Of a stretch of DNA of 64,000 bases, positions 2,478 to 31,317 are shown one piece after another. The DNA is from Candidatus Harrisonbacteria bacterium. GTDB taxonomy: Bacteria; Patescibacteriota; Minisyncoccia; UBA6257; 02-FULL-45-10c. The notes below the pieces were generated by a model. The model saw nothing but the letters and a program-made list of their open reading frames with translations. It was not told where the DNA came from and did no database searches. A program made the position numbers and the translations under genes. The stretch spans positions 195,078 through 259,077 of the forward strand of contig JACROC010000005.1 in the NCBI GenBank assembly GCA_016214655.1, read 5' to 3'. Position 1 is the first letter of the stretch. The number at the start of each line of letters is the position of its first letter.

Positions 2478-3683
2478 TTATGTCACCAGCCATCGCACGC
2501 GCCTATTCGCCAGATGGCTCATTTTATCATTTTGCGGAAGAAAATTAATTTCTAATAATGCCGCGAGAATAGTCGCGAGATTCTTCACAGAAACCGAATG
2601 TTTAAATTGTACCTCAAAACCGGATTTTTCGATAATGAGATTTGTAGATAGAGGCAGAAGCTTAATAGGCTTTTGAAACCGGCTATGAAAACGGTCGGAA
2701 AAAATGAGTGGCGGCAAATTAAAAAAAGAATTAACATAAATATCCGAAGACTCTTTCTCAACTAAAGTTTCCAATCCATTGGCGAACATCTGCAATTCTT
2801 TCAACAAGATATTTTCAAACCTCCGGAGAAAATTCTCCGAAGCATTTTCAGCAGAATAGCTCTGGATAATAGTTTTAGCGATCAATGGATCTACCTTAAG
2901 ATAGCGTCCCAGCAGATGAGTCAGGTCGTTCTCGCCCCATTCAAAATTATCCAAATGTCCAAGCCGGCCGCTGGATGAAAAATAAATTGAGGTCTGGTTG
3001 GGGAAAAGGTTCGCAATGAAAAACCGGTCTTGCCCGGCAATTCTGGAAAAAACATGGCTTATGGCAGTGCCAGCTTCGGTAACCAGCGCAATATTTTCTT
3101 TAGATAATAAATCCCGGAATCCGCGCATCAAATCCCGCGAAGTGAATGTCTGACTAAAATAAATCTCTACTGCCTTCGCCTTAAATCCAATGGGATTAAC
3201 AATTTTATGGCCATCCAACCTGATACCGCGGATACGGACGTCGCCTAACAAAACATCCACGTCATCGATATTCATTTTTTGGGCAACTTTCAAACGGTGA
3301 CGGTCAAAAAATCTCCAGATCGCCTGTGAAATCAAATTATCAATATCCGCCTCGTCGATGGTTTCTTTAGAATTCGGGCGCACTAAAGAAATGGAAGAAT
3401 AAATTGTGGTGGCGAAATCGGAATCCAAACTTAAAATGATTTTATATCTGTGCAGTTTCCTTACGTTTTTCAGCAAGAACTTGATTTCCTTCAAAATATT
3501 GAAAGTGCTGAATTCCGCAACCAGGCTCACCCAATTTCCCAAGATCCTGATTTTTTTCTTTTCAAAATCAGCTTTCAAAACCGTAACCTGCACATAATGA
3601 TTCAGCGCCTCGATCAAAAGATACCTATCGCCCCGGAAGAGCAAATTGGCCAGGAATTCTTTTATGTAATTTAGTCCCAACAC
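2478..3683 (-). CDS. putative actin-fold ATPase (PilM/FtsA-like)
   Basis: The 401-aa ORF has an N-terminal beta-hairpin pattern (LLIEALNHYVQVTVLKAD) and a middle region resembling sugar-kinase/Hsp70/actin-fold proteins of the PilM/FtsA type. This is weak similarity by eye only. Confidence 0.35.
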   Translation of the reverse strand: MLGLNYIKEFLANLLFRGDRYLLIEALNHYVQVTVLKADFEKKKIRILGNWVSLVAEFSTFNILKEIKFLLKNVRKLHRYKIILSLDSDFATTIYSSISLVRPNSKETIDEADIDNLISQAIWRFFDRHRLKVAQKMNIDDVDVLLGDVRIRGIRLDGHKIVNPIGFKAKAVEIYFSQTFTSRDLMRGFRDLLSKENIALVTEAGTAISHVFSRIAGQDRFFIANLFPNQTSIYFSSSGRLGHLDNFEWGENDLTHLLGRYLKVDPLIAKTIIQSYSAENASENFLRRFENILLKELQMFANGLETLVEKESSDIYVNSFFNLPPLIFSDRFHSRFQKPIKLLPLSTNLIIEKSGFEVQFKHSVSVKNLATILAALLEINFLPQNDKMSHLANRRVRWLVT

Positions 3684-3734
3684 TTTTTATTATAACACAT
3701 ATAGGCGATTAGCGGTTAGCGACTAGCGACTAGT

Positions 3735-3761
3735 TAAAAAAACGGCTCATTTTGAGCCGTT
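3735..3761 (-). terminator. intrinsic terminator hairpin (aacggctca-ttt-tgagccgtt) with a U-run on the minus strand
   Basis: A 9-bp perfect stem with a 3-nt loop overlaps the stop codon of the 3760..3969 ORF. It is followed on the minus strand by UUUUUU. Confidence 0.5.
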
Positions 3762-3969
3762 ATGTAAGGAAAAGGACTGAGGGTTGGTAATAGATGTATT
3801 CCGTTGAGTTGTACATGCCGCCGTCAGCGCCGCGGACCATCGTCTCGCGAATACGAAGCTCGGCGTCGTTATCCAGCTCCAAAATCAAAATGCTTTCTTT
3901 GGAAACGATTCCAACGATTCTTCTGCCAATCAGCAGCCTCGCCACTTCCTCGTTTATTTTGTTATGCAC
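3760..3969 (-). CDS. small hypothetical protein (69 aa)
   Basis: The ORF ends exactly in an intrinsic terminator hairpin. No family was recognised. Confidence 0.4.
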   Translation of the reverse strand: MHNKINEEVARLLIGRRIVGIVSKESILILELDNDAELRIRETMVRGADGGMYNSTEYIYYQPSVLFLT

Positions 3970-4028: not shown

Positions 4029-5777
4029 TTACAAGAGGATAACAACAGCTCTTATTCTCCGTACGCCAGATCCAACAGCTTCCTGTTTCAAAATCTTAAA
4101 TTTTCCGATTTTAAAAGTATTGGCAACATGCGGTCCGCCGCAAAATTCTTTGCTAAAATCACCCATAAAATAAACTTTTACTTTTTCAGGATATTTTTGT
4201 TTAAAGAAATAAAGCGCGCCGGTTTTTTTAGCTTCTTCAATCGGCAACTCTTTATAATAAACTGGCAAGTCTTTTTGGATTGCCTCATTGACTAAATCTT
4301 CTATCTTTTTAACTTCTTCGTCGGTGAGTTTGCGGCTAAACGAGAAATCAAACCTGGTTCGCTCTGCAGTTATATCCGAACCCATCTGATGCACATCTAG
4401 TCCAAGCACATTGCGTAGCGCCTGTTGAAGCAAGTGAGTCGCGGTATGGAGCCGGGTGACTTTTTCCACTTCTTCGGACGTAGAAGCTTTGAGTTCTCCG
4501 GTATCTAAAATAAGACCGTGACCGCCAAATTTTTTCTCCGAACCGGCACGAGAAACCTCCTGATGCTTTTTAAACTCCGCATCAAAATTATCTTTATTTA
4601 AACCTCTTACCTTGGCCGGCACTAATTCACCCAGCAATTCCCACGGCAATCCGAAAGTTTCATAAATATAAAATGCGTCTTTGGCAGTAATAACGTCGTA
4701 TTTTTCGATCTCTTTTATTCCCAGGGCGAGCGCTTTTTCGAATTTTGATTTTTCTTCCATCATTACTGCGAAAATTTCTTTCGTATTTTTCACTTCCGGA
4801 TACGCATCGCCAAAAGTTTCTCTGACAATATCCACAGCCAAAGCAAAAAGCTCCGCGTGAATATCATATTTAATTTCATAAACCATTATCCGGCGAAGTA
4901 ATCTCCTCAAGATATAACCGACTTCCTTATTAGACGGCCGGACGCCGTCGGCAATTAAAAATATTGATGCCCGCAGATGATCCGCCAAAACTCTCAATAC
5001 TTTATCTTCTAGTCCGGATTTTACTTCCTGAATTTTTGAAACAAGCGGATGAAAAAGATCGGTTTCAAATACATTATCAACACCCCGAAGCATTGTGGCT
5101 AAGCGCTCCAGGCCCATGCCGGTATCCACACCAGGCGTTTCCAATTTCCGCAAACTCTTGTCCGAATTCTGATAATATTCGTTAAAGACTAAATTCCAAA
5201 TCTCCACGCCGTCAACATAAATTTCCGTTGTCGGCCCGCAGGGACCTTCATTGCCGGTTGGTCCCCAAAAATTATCCGCCCGGCCATGCTTTTTAATTTT
5301 CTCCTTCGGCAAGCCGATTTCTTCATGCCAAATTCTGAATGATTCTTTATCAAATGGAATCGGGACTTGCCCTGGGCCTGCCGAAAGGTCGCCGCCAAAA
5401 ACCGTAACGGTAACCCGTTCGCGGTCAATTCCTAATTCATTTATGACAAAATCATGCGCCCACCGGATCGCTTCTTTTTTAAAATAACCGCCAAAACTGA
5501 AATTTCCAAGCATCTCAAAAAATGTCAGGTGAGTTTTATCGCCTACCTCATCAATATCCGAAGTCCGAAAACACTTCTGCACCGAAGCGGTATTTTTACT
5601 GCCGAAATCACGAATTGGATCGGCCTTACCAACATAATACGGCTTGAACTGTTGCATACCCGCAGTTGTCAGAAGCACCGAAGGATCGTCCGGAGTCAAA
5701 GAAGAAGACGGCACTACGGCGTGCCTGCGCTCTCGGAAAAAATCTGAAAATTTTTTACGGATTTCGCTAGATTCCAT
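4029..5777 (-). CDS. alaS: alanyl-tRNA synthetase, short form (catalytic plus editing core, no C-Ala domain)
   Basis: The N-terminus has class II AlaS motifs (FKPYY, SVQKCFRTSDIDEVGDKTHLTFFEMLGNFSFGGYFK). The C-terminus is an editing-domain-like HTATHLL...CGGPHV segment. At 582 aa it is far shorter than canonical AlaS of about 870 aa. Confidence 0.85.
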   Translation of the reverse strand: MESSEIRKKFSDFFRERRHAVVPSSSLTPDDPSVLLTTAGMQQFKPYYVGKADPIRDFGSKNTASVQKCFRTSDIDEVGDKTHLTFFEMLGNFSFGGYFKKEAIRWAHDFVINELGIDRERVTVTVFGGDLSAGPGQVPIPFDKESFRIWHEEIGLPKEKIKKHGRADNFWGPTGNEGPCGPTTEIYVDGVEIWNLVFNEYYQNSDKSLRKLETPGVDTGMGLERLATMLRGVDNVFETDLFHPLVSKIQEVKSGLEDKVLRVLADHLRASIFLIADGVRPSNKEVGYILRRLLRRIMVYEIKYDIHAELFALAVDIVRETFGDAYPEVKNTKEIFAVMMEEKSKFEKALALGIKEIEKYDVITAKDAFYIYETFGLPWELLGELVPAKVRGLNKDNFDAEFKKHQEVSRAGSEKKFGGHGLILDTGELKASTSEEVEKVTRLHTATHLLQQALRNVLGLDVHQMGSDITAERTRFDFSFSRKLTDEEVKKIEDLVNEAIQKDLPVYYKELPIEEAKKTGALYFFKQKYPEKVKVYFMGDFSKEFCGGPHVANTFKIGKFKILKQEAVGSGVRRIRAVVILL

Positions 5778-5847: not shown

Positions 5848-7404
5848 TTACTGCAATACTCTCTGTATCAACGGCTGAGAGGCGCGCTGAGCTTCTGTTT
5901 CCTCCGCTAATTTACGCAGTAAATTCTTCAAAGATTGTTCGGTATCTAGGAGTAAAGCTTTGACGTCTTTTAAAACCGCCATTATTGAATCGGGTTTGGC
6001 ATTTTTAGTTTTTAAATCCGAAAGATTCGCCAGAGATTTTTCAGCTGAAGTTAAAAGTTTGAAAAGCTCCGGCGAATTTTCCGAAGTCAAACCGTTTCTC
6101 CCCGAATCATATGAAATCCGGTCAAAATCTGTTTTTAAATTCCTGAGCAAATTTTCTAAATTGCCATAATCAATCAATTGCCGCAAGGCATTTCTTGCCG
6201 CGGCCGCCGCAATACTAGCCTGACCAAAGGCATTTGCGTACTGCGAATTACCAAAAGAGTCTTTTGCCTGCTTAAGATTAAATTCACTCAAAGAAAACAG
6301 GGCATCGGTGGATTGGCTTCTTAAATTCGCTTCAACGATCTTTTCTTTAAGCAATCTGGCCAAATTTTCCACATCATTCATCAATCTTTCCGCTTCTGAT
6401 TTACCGATGCTCCGACTGCGGGAAGCCAACTCTAAAATTAGTTGGCGAATCACACCTAAATCATTCTTTAGTTCGGAATCAGCCAAATACTCCCTTACTT
6501 CGTCCAAAACTTTTATTCTCCGCCAGGCATCTCCGGGTAATTGCTGAAATACCGCCGGCAAAGTAGAACTTAGATTTTCAGCGCCGATTTTCATTTGTAT
6601 TTTTAAGAACAAATCTTCTTTAAGCGCCAAAACTACCTCCCGCGCTTTGGAATTGTAAGGAGTTTTATCCTCTACCCGATCCAACCGCTCCAAGGCGCGG
6701 AATTCTTTAAATACTCCTCCCCCGCCTTGATCTACAACAGCTAAAAACCGTGAACGGAAACTCTCCGGGGAATCAAGATATGCCAAAGTATCTGCGATAA
6801 TTTCGCTAATACGGCTTTGTAAAGAATCCAGTTTTTCTTTATTTCGCGCATCACTTTTTAATTTCAAAACATCGAATAAACTCAAGTGTTTTAAGCTGCG
6901 ATCCAAAAGTTTATTCAATAATCTATCAACACCAGCATTGGAACTGTCCTCTTTAATTGACTTTAAAAGAGCCGGCAGACGATCTAAATTTTCTTTATAC
7001 ATTTCAAGCGCCTTAGCCAAAGCAACTTCGTTATCAGGTAAAATTTCTTCCAACCGCTTCAACTCTGCAGCTTTTTCATTTAAGAAGTCTAACTCTAAAT
7101 CAGCTTTTTGAACCGGGTTTATCTTAAATACCCTTTGAGTAGACCGCCGCCAATTCTTCATGAAATAAAAAGGATTAGACTGTAAAAGCCCCGGATCTTC
7201 TATCCCCAGATCTTCTAATTTGACAGCCTCTTGGGCAACCAGCCTCAAAACCAGGCTATTTTCAGGATTAATCTCTCCTTGAGCCAAACTGACCGCCGGA
7301 ACCAAAACAAGGCTGAAAATGGCGGTTTTTATGGCTATTTTACATATAAATTGTCGTTTACCCATGTTTCCAATATAAAAACCCTTATTTAACAGGGTCC
7401 TCAC
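5848..7404 (-). CDS. secreted alpha-helical hypothetical protein (signal peptide)
   Basis: The 518-aa ORF has an N-terminal hydrophobic signal-like segment (AIFSLVLVPAVSLAQG). The rest is Leu/Glu/Lys-rich and helical. No catalytic motif was seen. Confidence 0.55.
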   Translation of the reverse strand: MRTLLNKGFYIGNMGKRQFICKIAIKTAIFSLVLVPAVSLAQGEINPENSLVLRLVAQEAVKLEDLGIEDPGLLQSNPFYFMKNWRRSTQRVFKINPVQKADLELDFLNEKAAELKRLEEILPDNEVALAKALEMYKENLDRLPALLKSIKEDSSNAGVDRLLNKLLDRSLKHLSLFDVLKLKSDARNKEKLDSLQSRISEIIADTLAYLDSPESFRSRFLAVVDQGGGGVFKEFRALERLDRVEDKTPYNSKAREVVLALKEDLFLKIQMKIGAENLSSTLPAVFQQLPGDAWRRIKVLDEVREYLADSELKNDLGVIRQLILELASRSRSIGKSEAERLMNDVENLARLLKEKIVEANLRSQSTDALFSLSEFNLKQAKDSFGNSQYANAFGQASIAAAAARNALRQLIDYGNLENLLRNLKTDFDRISYDSGRNGLTSENSPELFKLLTSAEKSLANLSDLKTKNAKPDSIMAVLKDVKALLLDTEQSLKNLLRKLAEETEAQRASQPLIQRVLQ

Positions 7405-7475
7405 ATATATTTTCCCGATTAATTAACTCCTTATTTACTTACAATTAGTATAACATATCAGATACTAAAAAGCCA

Positions 7476-7930
7476 GTAAAAAGAAAGCCCCCTCAACTAC
7501 CAGAAGAGGGGGCGGCGAGCGCCTCGTTTGTCGCTGGTCTCTGATAACCAGCCTAGTCCCGTCGGACTGAGACACTCTAAGGAGCTTATTTGGTTAGATC
7601 GCGCGTACTCCCTATGTCAACCACGCGCGACCAGGAACGCTTACCAGGTGGTCAGAAGACCTGGCGTATCTGTGAGCTGTCTCCCGTGCCCTGCACGAGA
7701 TAACAACCAGGATGCGCTCCACGGTAATACGGATGGGTTTTTCGCTAGGTGGCAACCCAGCTAAAGCAACCTCACGCGTTGCTTTCCTCCCACCGCCCCA
7801 TAATGATCCCTCTTTGAGAAACCACGCTGGAACCAGATTCCAAACTGATGCCTCGGTCCGGTGCCAATGAAGGTACTACAGTCTAGCCGGGGCGCCCCTT
7901 GCGGAGCCTTCCGTCAGCTTCGACAAATTA
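7476..7930 (-). ncRNA. candidate structured ncRNA (class unresolved; size fits RNase P RNA or another large RNA), or a long structured rpoD 3' UTR
   Basis: This 455-nt ORF-free block is GC-rich (about 55-58%) against an approximately 40% GC background. It has many local hairpins, for example CCAGGUCUUCUGACCACCUGG and CGCGCGUGG...ACGCGCG. It ends with a minus-strand intrinsic terminator (cccccuc-N11-gaggggg then CUUUCUUUUU, plus 7476..7508). No tRNA-like T-arm is present, which argues against tmRNA. Confidence 0.35.
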
Positions 7931-7955
7931 AATATAGCATATAATCCAATTCTTG

Positions 7956-9194
7956 TCAATACCCCTCAATTGTGTGCGATTTGCCGTGCTGACGGATGCG
8001 GCTGAGAGCCTTCGCTTCAATCTGGCGGATGCGCTCGCGGGTGACTGCAAACTCCTTTCCTACTTCTTCCAAAGTATGGGTAATTCCATCCTCCAGACCA
8101 AAACGCATCTGAAGAATTTTCTGCTCTCTCGGAGTCAGGTCAACTAAAATTTCTTTGATCCTTTCCCGAAGTAAAGTTTGGGATGCTACCTGCGAGGGAG
8201 TAAGGCTGTGAGTATCTTCAATAAATTCGGACAAAGTTGATTCGTCGTCATCTTCGCCAACCGGCGCCTCAAGCGAAACCACTTCCTGGGAAATTTTCTG
8301 GATATGATGAACCTTCTCCACCGAAATATTCATTTCAATGGCAATTTCTTCCGGCAAAGGATCACGCCCCAATTCCTGCATTAAATGCCGCTTAGCTTGG
8401 GTATATTTAGAAATAGTTTCCACCATATGGACCGGAATACGGATAGTTCTGGATTGGTCAGCAAGAGCGCGGGTAATAGCCTGGCGAATCCACCAGGTTG
8501 CATAAGTAGAAAATTTAAAACCCCGGCGGTAATCAAATTTTGTAACTGCCCTGGCAAGGCCGATATTGCCCTCCTGAACAAGATCTAAAATACTGAGATG
8601 CGGAGTCCTGTTGACGTAGCGCTTGGCAATAGAAACTACCAGCCGGAGATTGGCTTTAATAAATTGCTGGCGGGCCTCTTCATCCCCCTTCTCAATTTTT
8701 TTAGCCAATTCCCGTTCCTGTTCCTGTTTCAAAAGCTCAGTCTTGCCGATCTCTTTAAGATATTGCTGGACTGAATCCGGCAGCTCTCCCTCAAAATGAG
8801 TCGCTTTTTCTAATTCCTTTTTGCTGATTTCATCTTTAGGAAGCTCGATTAACTGGCTGGTTTCCAAAACCTTAATATTAGCGGTCTCCAGCCGGTTATA
8901 AATTTCCTCCAAAAAAGCGACGTCGTCTTCCACGCGCGGAAAATAATGGAGCACTTCCGTATCCGTCACAAAACCACGGCTCTTTCCGCGGTCAATCAAT
9001 TCATTTAAAGCCTCCTCTTCAGCCATAGCTTTCTTCTCGCCCCCCGCTACTTTCTTCGCAGCCACGTTCTTTAAAATTTTCTTTATCTTTTTGATTTTCT
9101 TAGCCTTCTTGGTTTTTTTAACCTTCTTAAGTTTCTTTTTCAGCTTTTTAATTTTTGGCTTTTTTATTTTTTTATTTTTCTTCTTTTTGCTCAT
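7956..9194 (-). CDS. rpoD: RNA polymerase sigma-70 factor RpoD
   Basis: Region 2.4/3 reads [15 protein letters not shown] and region 4 reads [28 protein letters not shown]. The N-terminus is extremely Lys-rich ([15 protein letters not shown]...). The ORF track starts at 9275 and overlaps dnaG. The MSKKKK start at 9194 gives a 14-nt gap after the dnaG stop and is preferred. Confidence 0.9.
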
Positions 9195-9207
9195 AAAATA
9201 AGACAAT

Positions 9208-10950
9208 TTATGCATTATGTAACTCTTTAGATATATTAGCAAACTCCCGCATCGCCGCCTGGAGCTTATTCTCATCGCCCTCTCCCTCCAGTATTTTAAT
9301 TAAATCGCTGATTTCCTGCCTTTTATCCTTTAAATATTCAACCCTTAATTCCCGTAAAAGGTTCCTCATTTCTTTCTTCAGATTTTCAACGTCAAAATCC
9401 TGATTTTCAAAGCTAAAACGCAAGCTAATAGAATTCATGAAATCTCCCAAATCTGATGATACATTCACGCCTTTATTTAAAAGTAAGTCCCGATAGATAG
9501 TAAGGTATTGTTCTGGGAAATATTTAAGGTGGTCTTCAATGGTCTGCATATCATTTTGCAGATGCAGCATCACCCCCAGAAGCCTTTGCGAAATCAATTC
9601 CCGGCGAGACAATTTTTGGCTTACACTAACTGCCGGTGCGCCCGCCGGAACTATAGCCTCGGCCACGCCAGCCGGCGTCAATATTTCCATTTCTTCAGCC
9701 AAAACCCGCTCATCGATTCTAGCAATTTTAGAGAGCTGATTAAGCCAATGGCTCCGCTCAATCGGACTGGAAAGATTTTTAATCTTGGCGAGCACTACCC
9801 GCAGATTCTGCTTTTTAGCTTTAATGTCAGTGGACGCATTATTAAAATATTTATAAAAATAATAATCCATTGCAGACTTTGCGCCGCCAAGCAAATCTTT
9901 GATTTTACCGGGCTGTTCTCTGACTACATCTGCCGGATCTTTAAATTTTGCATCTTCAATTACCAAAAGTTTCACCGCGAAATCATGCGCTCCCGCCAAA
10001 TCAATACTTCTCTCCGCGGCTATCTGCCCTGCCAGATCAGCATCAAAACTTAACACCACCTCATCAGCTAATCTCCGCAAAACCGCCAAATGATCTTGGG
10101 TCAGAGCAGTCCCGGAGGTAGCTACAGCGTTTTTAATTCCATCCTGCCAGACCATCAGAAAATCCATCTGTCCCTCAACTAAAACTGCAGTTTTAGCCTC
10201 ACGAATATCACTCTTAGTTCTATGAAATCCATATAAAATTTTAGATTTCTGAAAAACCGGGGTTTCCGGACTATTTACATATTTGCCAACGTTAGGATTA
10301 TTATTTCCCGGCAGGATTCTGCCGGTGAATGCAACTACTTTGCCAAAATGATTATAAATCGGAAACATTATGCGGCCACGGAACCTATCCCAATAAGTTC
10401 CCCGCTCGGTTTTAATTGCCAAGCCGGCTTTTTCAATATCCAAAATATTATAGCCAAGTTTTAAAAGATGGTGCGTCAGTATATCAGAACCGTCCGCAGC
10501 AAAACCGATTTCAAACTCCTGAACAGTTTCATCTTTTAATCCCCGCTCCCTCAAATAATTTCTAACTAAGTCGGACTTCACAAGATTAGATCTAAAGAAA
10601 TTTTTAGCCGCCTCCATTACGGCATATAAAGAATTATAAGATTTAAAATCACGATTGCCGGAGGTCTTAATGTCCACGCCGGCTTTTTCCGCCAAAACCT
10701 TTAAAGCATCATAAAATTCCAAATTCTCATATTTCATCAAAAACTTTATGATGTCACCGCCTTCATTGCAGGCGCCAAAACAATGCCAGGATTGCCGTTC
10801 CGGCGAAACCATAAAAGACGGAGTTTTCTCTTTATGGAAGGGGCAGCACGCTTTCATATTTTTACCTGCCGGCTTCAGCTGGACATACGGCCGCAAAAAA
10901 TCCACAATATCTAACTTTTCCTTTATAAGTTGGGCTGTATCAGAAGACAT
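9208..10950 (-). CDS. dnaG: DNA primase DnaG
   Basis: It has a CHC2 zinc finger ([26 protein letters not shown]) and a TOPRIM motif ([10 protein letters not shown]). It is adjacent to rpoD, as in the macromolecular synthesis operon. Confidence 0.9.
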
Positions 10951-28870: not shown

Positions 28871-29506
28871 CTAACTTGCGAGAACGGCAGACGGACCGTC
28901 AACATCCCAGTCGCTGCCAAGCCAGTTGCAGCTCCAGTGCCACCTGCCATCGAACCAGTACAGACACAGGACGTAGCGGTCGCCATCCGGGTACCGAAGA
29001 ACCGTTCCATCAAAGAAGATGAAACGGATGTTGCCGTTCACCTTCTCTTTCCACGATTCGGGGATGAGGAGCTGGTTCTCCCAGAGCGTCTGGAAGACCT
29101 TGGCATCCAGGCGGATGTGACCCGCCTTCTTCAGCCGTTTCAGCTTTTCCTCACCGGTGATCGACGTCTCGTTCGGATTGAGCATCGTCTCGAAGCGGAC
29201 CTTGGACAGGTCGACTTCGGTGAGCGCCTCCGAACGGGCGTCCGTGTCTTCGCCGACAACCGACCAACCCTTGCCGATGAAGGCGACGGGGTCGAACGGC
29301 TTGGCGCGATCGATCTTCAGGATCTTCGGTTCCCCGACGAGGACCTTTCCGCCGTTCTTGAGGAAGGCAGTGAACTGCTGTCCCGCCTGACGAGGGTCGT
29401 TGATGATTTTCTGGATGGTGTCGCTATCCAGATTGTCCCAGTCTGCGTTGTTAGCGAGGACTGAGAACAGGTTGAGGGACTGACCGGTAGTGATGGCTTT
29501 TCCCAT
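28871..29506 (-). CDS. DGR target protein (variable C-terminal domain; likely C-type-lectin/FGE-like fold)
   Basis: The 211-aa ORF is preceded by AAGGAG about 8 nt upstream. Its C-terminal 41 aa (RYPDGDRYVLCLYWFDGRWHWSCNWLGSDWDVDGPSAVL) are encoded by the VR. The gene body is about 57% GC against about 37% for the adjacent RT. Confidence 0.85.
   Translation of the reverse strand: MGKAITTGQSLNLFSVLANNADWDNLDSDTIQKIINDPRQAGQQFTAFLKNGGKVLVGEPKILKIDRAKPFDPVAFIGKGWSVVGEDTDARSEALTEVDLSKVRFETMLNPNETSITGEEKLKRLKKAGHIRLDAKVFQTLWENQLLIPESWKEKVNGNIRFIFFDGTVLRYPDGDRYVLCLYWFDGRWHWSCNWLGSDWDVDGPSAVLAS
28876..29001 (-). repeat. DGR variable repeat (VR), 126 nt, ending 5 nt before the target stop codon
   Basis: It is the counterpart of the TR. 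On the sense strand the 15 differences are A to G x10, A to C x2 and A to T x3. The 3' end of the VR (CTCGCAAG) diverges from the TR (CTCGAAAC), as expected for IMH versus IMH*. Confidence 0.85.
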
Positions 29507-31090: not shown

Positions 31091-31317
31091 CCAAATCAAA
31101 GAACGAACTGTAAATATACAATAGCATACTATAAAATTTTGTCAATAGTGACAAATCTTAGAATGGGTTATATAATTTACAATAAATTTGAATAAAGTAC
31201 CCCGTATAAATTTTACTCTTGGATATAGTAAAGATAAAATTTATACGGGATGCTCATTTTTGCAGCCAATCGGGCTGCGTTAGTAAATTAACTTGCCCTC
31301 TTGGGCAAAAATGGCAC

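Follow-up and report, generated by a model that had tools for sequence, protein, structure and literature searches.

Genomic context of the rpoD-DUF5667 intergenic region

The stretch of DNA analyzed here, called the window below, comprises 64,000 nucleotides (nt) of contig JACROC010000005.1 from the metagenome-assembled genome of an uncultured Candidatus Harrisonbacteria bacterium, a member of the Candidate Phyla Radiation (CPR). On its minus strand, the gap between the sigma factor gene rpoD and the gene for a DUF5667 protein contains a GC-rich unit that probably represents a stand-alone gene for a large, highly structured noncoding RNA (ncRNA). The genes and features of the region are listed in Table 1; the DUF5667 protein of the window is 100% identical to NCBI entry HZB99_02710. 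The GC content of the unit is 56.6%, compared to 41.7% for the whole window. In a 200-nt profile, the GC fraction across the block ranges from 0.55 to 0.59, and the level reached at positions 7500 to 7899 is matched by only 0.5% of 400-nt segments.

An earlier reading of this DNA (here, the sequence-only reading) had described a GC-rich, ORF-free block located directly 3' of rpoD on the same strand and ending at a minus-strand terminator. The base composition and the position are borne out by the present analysis, as rpoD ends immediately upstream of the unit. No ORF in the block is credible, as none of them (78, 47, and 52 amino acids [aa] long) had a Pfam match at E values of ≤1, but the 78-aa ORF, which had been taken as the sole one, is accompanied by two others. 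The terminator is real and lies at positions 7512 to 7478, ~4 nt away from where it had been placed. The minus-strand promoter overlapping the rpoD stop codon, described below, was absent from that reading.

Promoter and terminator of the RNA unit

The promoter predicted for the RNA unit is of the sigma-70 type and agrees with the consensus at 11 of 12 positions. Its -35 element, TTGACA (7959 to 7954), includes the TGA stop codon of rpoD and is followed, after a 17-nt spacer, by the extended -10 element TGcTATATT (7939 to 7931), in which the TG is present. The 5' end of the transcript was placed ~7 nt past the -10 element, and the 3' end was placed at the U-tract of the intrinsic terminator. 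Because it is delimited by these two signals, the transcript is predicted to be ~447 nt long.

The DUF5667 gene has its own promoter, which lies outside the RNA. The motif ATATGcTATAcTAA, located before this gene, is conserved in all five lineages aligned (the window, L081, L087, L090, and L092), including those that lack the RNA. The presence of a separate promoter for the DUF5667 gene argues that the RNA is not the leader of that gene.

Both promoters of the region have an extended -10 element of the form TGnTATAnT. Together with the motif ATATGcTATAcTAA shared by the five lineages, this suggests that promoters in this clade are usually of the extended -10 type.

Homologs and conservation of the RNA unit

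Homologs of the RNA unit were identified in two further groundwater lineages, L087 and L099, by a synteny walk via DUF5667 and RpoD homologs; sequences of the L087 lineage came from three data sources and also bear the designations L088, L089, L106, and L115. With the window sequence as the single query, nhmmer matched the L087 copy at an E value of 6e-77, and with a three-sequence profile, full-length homology was obtained to L087 (positions 3467 to 3923) and L099 (positions 103 to 558), with E values of 1e-142 to 1e-164. In each of the three lineages carrying it, the RNA unit immediately precedes the DUF5667 gene, and in two of them it immediately follows rpoD. The promoters of the L087 copy (CTGACA-17-TGcTATATT) and the L099 copy (TTGACA-17-TGcTATATT) are positioned as in the window, and both homologs have a terminator in the matching position, with differing stem sequences.

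In L099, the 60 nt located 5' of the RNA promoter are AT-rich and do not belong to rpoD. Because the promoter is kept there although no rpoD sequence precedes it, the RNA unit appears to be independent of rpoD. The L099 contig ends upstream of the RNA unit (positions 1 to 70), and either the linkage to rpoD is broken in this lineage or the short contig is misassembled.

Conservation along the unit is uneven. A core of 280 nt is 89% to 93% identical across the three lineage pairs. Between the window and L087, the identity of this core (90%) is higher than that of the DNA of rpoD (80%), alaS (78%), dnaG (72%), and the DUF5667 gene (66%), whereas identity is only about 50% in the 5' 140 nt of the RNA and in the tail linking the core to the terminator. 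For the 5' domain, the identity of the window to the two homologs is 49% to 52%. Such uneven conservation (~90% in the core and ~50% in the 5' domain) indicates that the core is under purifying selection and that the block as a whole was not recently transferred horizontally. Insertions and deletions of single bases occur within the core of the three copies (window, L087, and L099), and no reading frame is consistently open in all of them. For these reasons, a protein-coding sequence could be rejected; neither Pfam matches nor protein homology spoke for one.

Predicted secondary structure

The RNA of the minus strand is predicted to fold with a minimum free energy of -190 kcal/mol (z = -3.9), compared to -162 kcal/mol (z = -2.9) for the plus strand; the z score of the L087 copy is -5.6. 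The 5' arm and elements H6 to H12 and H14 to H16 (Table 1) were obtained both with RNAalifold and by folding single sequences independently. The predicted fold consists of a variable 5' arm, three successive domains built around three-way junctions, and a long GC-rich hairpin.

Table 1. Genes, transcription signals, and predicted RNA elements in the rpoD region of the window
Feature	Positions	Strand	Remarks
dnaG	9208-10950	-	
rpoD	7956-9275	-	Five sigma-70 Pfam domains; stop directly upstream of RNA unit
rpoD-DUF5667 gap			551 nt; contains the RNA unit
Promoter of RNA gene	7931-7959	-	TTGACA-17-TGcTATATT
Predicted transcript	7478-7924	-	~447 nt
Variable 5' domain	7797-7924	-	GCAA-capped hairpin (7907-7893), conserved island GUAGUAC, H4 (7862-7832), H5 (7831-7797)
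Core domain 1	7729-7796	-	Stem H6 (7796-7789 with 7737-7729) closing a three-way junction
H7 and H8	7785-7763 and 7761-7744	-	Within the H6 junction; both invariant
Core domain 2	7634-7720	-	Stem H9 (7720-7714 with 7640-7634) closing a three-way junction
H10	7710-7670	-	Long hairpin
Junction strand UCACAGAUAC	7675-7666	-	In the H9 junction; invariant
H11	7665-7643	-	Hairpin; invariant 9-nt loop CUUCUGACC (7658-7650)
H12	7596-7633	-	Hairpin; 12-bp GC-rich stem, large loop with AGGGAG
Core domain 3	7517-7577	-	Stem H16 (GAGUGUCUC, 7577-7569, with GAGGCGCUC, 7525-7517); three-way junction
H14 and H15	7567-7556 and 7552-7533	-	In the H16 junction; H15 loop UAUCAGAG
Intrinsic terminator	7478-7512	-	CCCCCUC, 11-nt loop, GAGGGGG, then CUUUCUUUUU
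Extended -10 of DUF5667 gene promoter	7447-7455	-	TGtTATACT; outside the RNA
DUF5667 protein gene	5848-7404	-	Next gene downstream of the RNA; encodes a membrane protein
alaS	4029-5777	-	Short form
ORF	7528-7764	+	78 aa; TTG start
ORF	7612-7755	-	47 aa
ORF	7712-7870	+	52 aa

The model comprises 117 base pairs. Of these, 84 are invariant, 13 show one-sided compatible changes, 7 differ in both bases, and another 13, most of them in the poorly aligned H4 and H5, cannot form in one or more of the sequences. Although the three sequences share little identity in H5, a hairpin of 14 to 17 bp is predicted at this position in each of them (z = -3.8, -4.9, and -5.9), and six of the H5 pairs are changed on both sides. 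Only one core pair is changed on both sides. The compatible differences in the core include G-C to G-U changes in H6, a compensatory U-A to C-G change in H10, and two U-G pairs in H16 of the window that are C-G in both homologs; in L099, a paired G...C insertion lengthens H11. The stem of H12 is invariant and therefore allows no covariation test. The core structure proposed here is thus a draft resting on thermodynamics, a few compatible changes (H10 and H16), and conservation.

Two tertiary contacts can be drawn on this model. The AGGGAGU sequence in the H12 loop could pair with GCUCCUU (7585 to 7579) as a pseudoknot, and the H15 loop (UCAGAG) and the H11 loop (UUCUGA) contain complementary sequences, making a loop-loop contact between them possible.

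Distribution of the RNA and variability of the site

The gap between rpoD and the DUF5667 gene measures only 78 to 212 nt and contains no trace of the RNA in lineages L081, L090, L092, and L118 and in the more distant L095 and L096. In L090, a simple terminator stands where the RNA block would be. The RNA was not detected by nhmmer or by a covariance model (CM) in 80 loci obtained from an RpoD scan of genome contigs (best identity, 71%). A CM of a 164-nt core returned no further copies from ~0.85 Mb of related loci, and neither nhmmer nor the CM found a second copy in the window or in those loci; terminal repeats were also lacking. As a single-copy sequence without terminal repeats, the unit was rejected as a repeat or mobile element.

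Wider searches gave the same picture. A metagenome scan with anchors taken from the junctions and loops (TCACAGATACN{6,10}CTTCTGACC) yielded 12 matches, 2 of which were L087 contigs and 10 of which were due to chance. Three scans of viral contigs gave no true match (two chance matches were within a phage gene), and no phage or plasmid record was matched by blastn. Since spurious ORFs lying over an RNA may be annotated as proteins, a concatenated six-frame translation was also compared with 5.8 billion proteins, with no match at E values of ≤10. No description of this RNA was found in the literature searched. Within these searches, the RNA family is narrow, comprising three lineages, and patchy.

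Other sequences occupy the same site in related lineages. Between rpoD and the DUF5667 gene, L100 has an ORF for an 85-aa hydrophobic protein (positions 2416 to 2673) and L101 has a small Cys-rich ORF (positions 1603 to 1752) that comes with a promoter-like site of its own. In L117, another Harrisonbacteria-like lineage, a different GC-rich block of ~345 nt (GC fraction, 0.53 to 0.61) with its own terminator lies on the plus strand right after rpoD and before tuf (positions 3262 to 3606). The L117 block folds strongly (z = -4.9), matched no Rfam model, and is not similar to the RNA of the window; it is a candidate for a second unclassified structured RNA in the same genomic position. The site downstream of rpoD thus resembles a hot spot where the cargo varies between lineages.

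Comparison with known RNA families

The window was searched with the 4,227 models of Rfam 15 at gathering thresholds, and the block was searched at E values of ≤10. Only four tRNAs were detected in the whole window. In the block, a single irrelevant match of 17 bits, to a frameshift-site model, was placed over the terminator. No relevant Rfam match was obtained at this E value for the window, L087, or L099 copy, the matches listed being of 11 to 18 bits and to unrelated families, and no riboswitch or leader family was matched in any of the three. The sequence-only reading had treated a lack of Rfam hits as a ground for dismissing an RNA gene. Such hits are indeed lacking, but this does not refute the gene because the sequence is conserved in relatives.

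Several known classes were considered and rejected. The transfer-messenger RNA (tmRNA), which combines a tRNA-like domain (acceptor stem, T-arm, and 3' CCA) with a reading frame for a tag and was already thought unlikely on the basis of the sequence, was found in the window neither by ARAGORN nor by Rfam, and the 3' end of the unit is an intrinsic terminator. 6S RNA is a rod-like helix of ~180 nt with a central bubble; its model (RF00013) gave no match, and the fold predicted here is branched and ~445 nt long. The CMs of OLE, ROOL, GOLLD, raiA, and HEARO matched none of the three homologs at E values of ≤10.

Large "ornate" bacterial ncRNAs such as OLE, ROOL, GOLLD, and raiA (Kretsch et al. 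2025, PMC12286853), whose functions are unknown or have begun to emerge only recently, nevertheless offer the closest likeness, which is one of kind only, as the RNA of the window matches none of their CMs. Like these RNAs, it exceeds 400 nt and is GC-rich, multijunctional, noncoding, encoded in a unit of its own, lineage restricted, and patchy, and it came to notice as a GC-rich stretch between genes in an AT-rich genome. Its complementary invariant loops, as modeled, would provide potential tertiary or quaternary contacts, which is a further resemblance. Unlike them, it occurs in CPR/Patescibacteria and not in Firmicutes, the rumen, or phages, has no tRNA or prophage neighbors, and is found in three lineages.

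Alternative explanations

The unit could be read as a long structured 3' untranslated region (UTR) of rpoD, or as an RNA processed from it, that acts in cis on the stability or termination of the rpoD mRNA. It starts at the stop codon on the same strand, the sole terminator available for rpoD transcripts is the one at 7512 to 7478, which would be common to the RNA and the mRNA as in 3' UTR-derived small RNAs and read-through RNAs, and L090, without the block, has a simple terminator there. We consider this explanation unlikely. A near-consensus extended -10 promoter is conserved in three lineages, the L099 unit retains it although the upstream 60 nt are not rpoD, six relatives manage with just 78 to 212 nt after rpoD, and a 280-nt core of ~90% identity far exceeds the needs of a stabilizing 3' hairpin; the RNA is also several times longer and more structured than 3' UTR-derived small RNAs. 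The sequence-only reading had proposed either a separate RNA gene or a 3' UTR, and the former fits better because the promoter is conserved and the L099 unit is not preceded by rpoD. There is very little to recommend a cis-regulatory leader of the riboswitch or attenuator type controlling the DUF5667 gene via the terminator. A riboswitch or leader of this kind shares one transcript with the ORF it regulates, has no promoter in between, and belongs to a known aptamer class. The RNA does lie directly upstream of this gene in all three lineages and does end in a terminator hairpin, but the separate promoter marked by ATATGcTATAcTAA stands between the terminator and the DUF5667 start, also in relatives without the RNA, no leader family is matched, no antiterminator pairing with conserved sequence is visible, and the terminator stem differs between lineages. 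The variable content of the gap (the small ORFs of L100 and L101, the other GC-rich block of L117, and nothing in six lineages), the patchy distribution, and the atypical GC content would also suit nonfunctional foreign DNA, such as a remnant of a mobile element or a decayed gene of higher GC content, inserted at a variable intergenic site. This is highly improbable given the uneven conservation, which points to purifying selection, the retention of promoter and terminator, the lack of terminal repeats and of a second copy, and the absence of similarity to phage or plasmid records, to viral contigs, or, in any frame, to proteins.

Two further explanations assign the unit to a known function. 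RNase P RNA, which is responsible for the 5' cleavage of pre-tRNAs, is encoded by a single gene in virtually all genomes. A strongly divergent RNase P RNA of a CPR type that lies below Rfam thresholds and lacks canonical helices would be compatible with the length of ~445 nt, the high GC content, the conserved core, and the stand-alone gene with its promoter; no RNase P RNA was detected elsewhere in the 64-kb window (Rfam, gathering thresholds), and there are loose look-alikes of conserved strings (GGGAGGAAAG and GACAAAC). Even so, this reading, which the sequence-only reading had raised tentatively, is quite improbable. Neither RF00010 nor RF00011 matched any of the three homologs at E values of ≤10. 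Neither half of P4, CR-I (GAGGAAAGUCCGGGC) or CR-V (ACAGAANCCGGCUUA), is present within three mismatches in positions 7478 to 7924, in agreement with the earlier remark that no convincing P4 helix could be found, and GGAAAG runs into a local 8-bp hairpin (AAAGCAAC with GUUGCUUU) instead of forming a long-range P4 strand. The fold predicted from the three sequences appears to consist of serial local three-way junctions and not of nested helices P1, P2, P4, P5, and P7 enclosing specificity and catalytic domains, although long-range pairings may have escaped a comparison of three sequences, and the locus is patchy, the site being empty in six relatives, close ones included. A 6S- or Ms1-like RNA that binds RNA polymerase and is linked to the sigma factor gene, which would be a special case of a trans-acting RNA, is also hardly to be expected. 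The unit adjoins rpoD in two of the three lineages and has a strong promoter of the constitutive type, but it lacks a 6S match in Rfam, its multidomain fold is not a rod with a bubble resembling an open promoter, the rpoD linkage is lost in L099, and the rpoD genes of relatives have no such RNA next to them.

Interpretation of the RNA unit

The explanation that we favor, and that we hold to be probable, is that positions 7478 to 7924 of the minus strand are a stand-alone gene for a stable, highly structured ncRNA of ~445 nt that belongs to no described family and acts in trans. Judged by its sequence, the unit is shown to be conserved, separately promoted and terminated, noncoding, and strongly folding. 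It has the features generally looked for in an ncRNA gene, namely, its own promoter and terminator, a core conserved above the flanking genes, and no coding potential. The large structured RNA suggested in the sequence-only reading is supported by all of these results, including the frame-breaking insertions and deletions, and the search for homologs that it had called for yielded two lineages in which the identity of the core is above that of the neighboring genes.

Some observations weigh against this interpretation. Since rpoD and the RNA are not separated by a terminator, read-through from rpoD must also yield the RNA as a 3' extension. At least six relatives with equally similar RpoD proteins (84% to 88% identity), L081, L090, L092, and L118 among them, are without the RNA at this site, and their AlaS proteins are equally similar. 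Covariation in the core is not significant with three sequences: no variation is seen in 45 of the 52 pairs, and the observed score was attained by 181 of 500 shuffles. Both proposed tertiary pairings involve invariant bases only. Finally, RNase P RNAs of CPR bacteria can escape Rfam thresholds: they were missed at standard thresholds in 10 of 35 complete CPR genomes, and some were detected only when the threshold was lowered to 5 bits (Lui et al. 2021, PMC8172020).

As a stand-alone RNA, the molecule may be compacted by the loop-loop contact (UUCUGA with UCAGAG) and by the loop-to-strand pseudoknot (AGGGAGU with GCUCCUU). Instead of regulating the adjacent genes in cis, it would work in trans in a structural or catalytic role, as a scaffold of a ribonucleoprotein (RNP), as a ribozyme, or as a self-assembling ornate RNA. 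Since relatives that are just as close have no copy at this site, the RNA is probably accessory and restricted to certain lineages, as opposed to a housekeeping RNA found universally. The chances seem to us about even that this RNA is the first member of a new class, specific to a Harrisonbacteria-like CPR clade, of large ornate RNAs that act in trans, encoded by an accessory gene and functioning either as a ribozyme or RNP scaffold or by self-assembly via its invariant complementary loops.

Other features of the window

The longest ORF of rpoD (439 aa) would overlap dnaG by 68 nt, and the deposited protein has 412 aa (P0032). On these grounds, the true start of rpoD is probably an internal one. 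The region encoding the N terminus of RpoD is of low complexity, with a strong AT and GC skew (positions 9000 to 9300). The AlaS protein of the window (582 aa) contains the catalytic and editing SAD domains and lacks the C-terminal domain, and those of relatives are equally short (558 to 593 aa).

The sole other strongly GC-rich stretch of the window lies at positions 28871 to 29506 of the minus strand (GC fraction, 0.55 to 0.63). This peak at 28.8 to 29.5 kb was considered as a hidden RNase P RNA and rejected, as it contains an ORF of 211 aa with a ribosome-binding site. The ORF belongs to no Pfam family and has just a subthreshold Radical SAM match of 12.6 bits; the stretch probably represents a gene gained by horizontal transfer, as opposed to an RNA. 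At positions 31176 to 31290, an AT-rich inverted repeat gave subthreshold matches to the Rfam trpB ncRNA motif on both strands (29.3 and 22.9 bits; gathering score, 59) and is probably a mere hairpin or terminator.

Implications

Large structured bacterial RNAs beyond those of the ribosome, RNase P, tmRNA, and group I and II introns are, to our knowledge, rare. OLE, GOLLD, ROOL, HEARO/omega RNA, and raiA have each led to unexpected biology, such as RNA-only cages and RNA-guided nucleases. The sequence, the boundaries, and a draft secondary structure of the RNA described here are now defined. Should it be an extreme variant of RNase P RNA after all, the minimal conserved core of that ribozyme would be redefined. 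CPR/Patescibacteria have genomes of less than 1 Mb, which are among the smallest in bacteria, and their ncRNA content is almost unexplored. A predicted, strongly promoted RNA of ~445 nt whose core has changed less than the DNA of the adjacent housekeeping genes would have a function worth its genomic space in these organisms.

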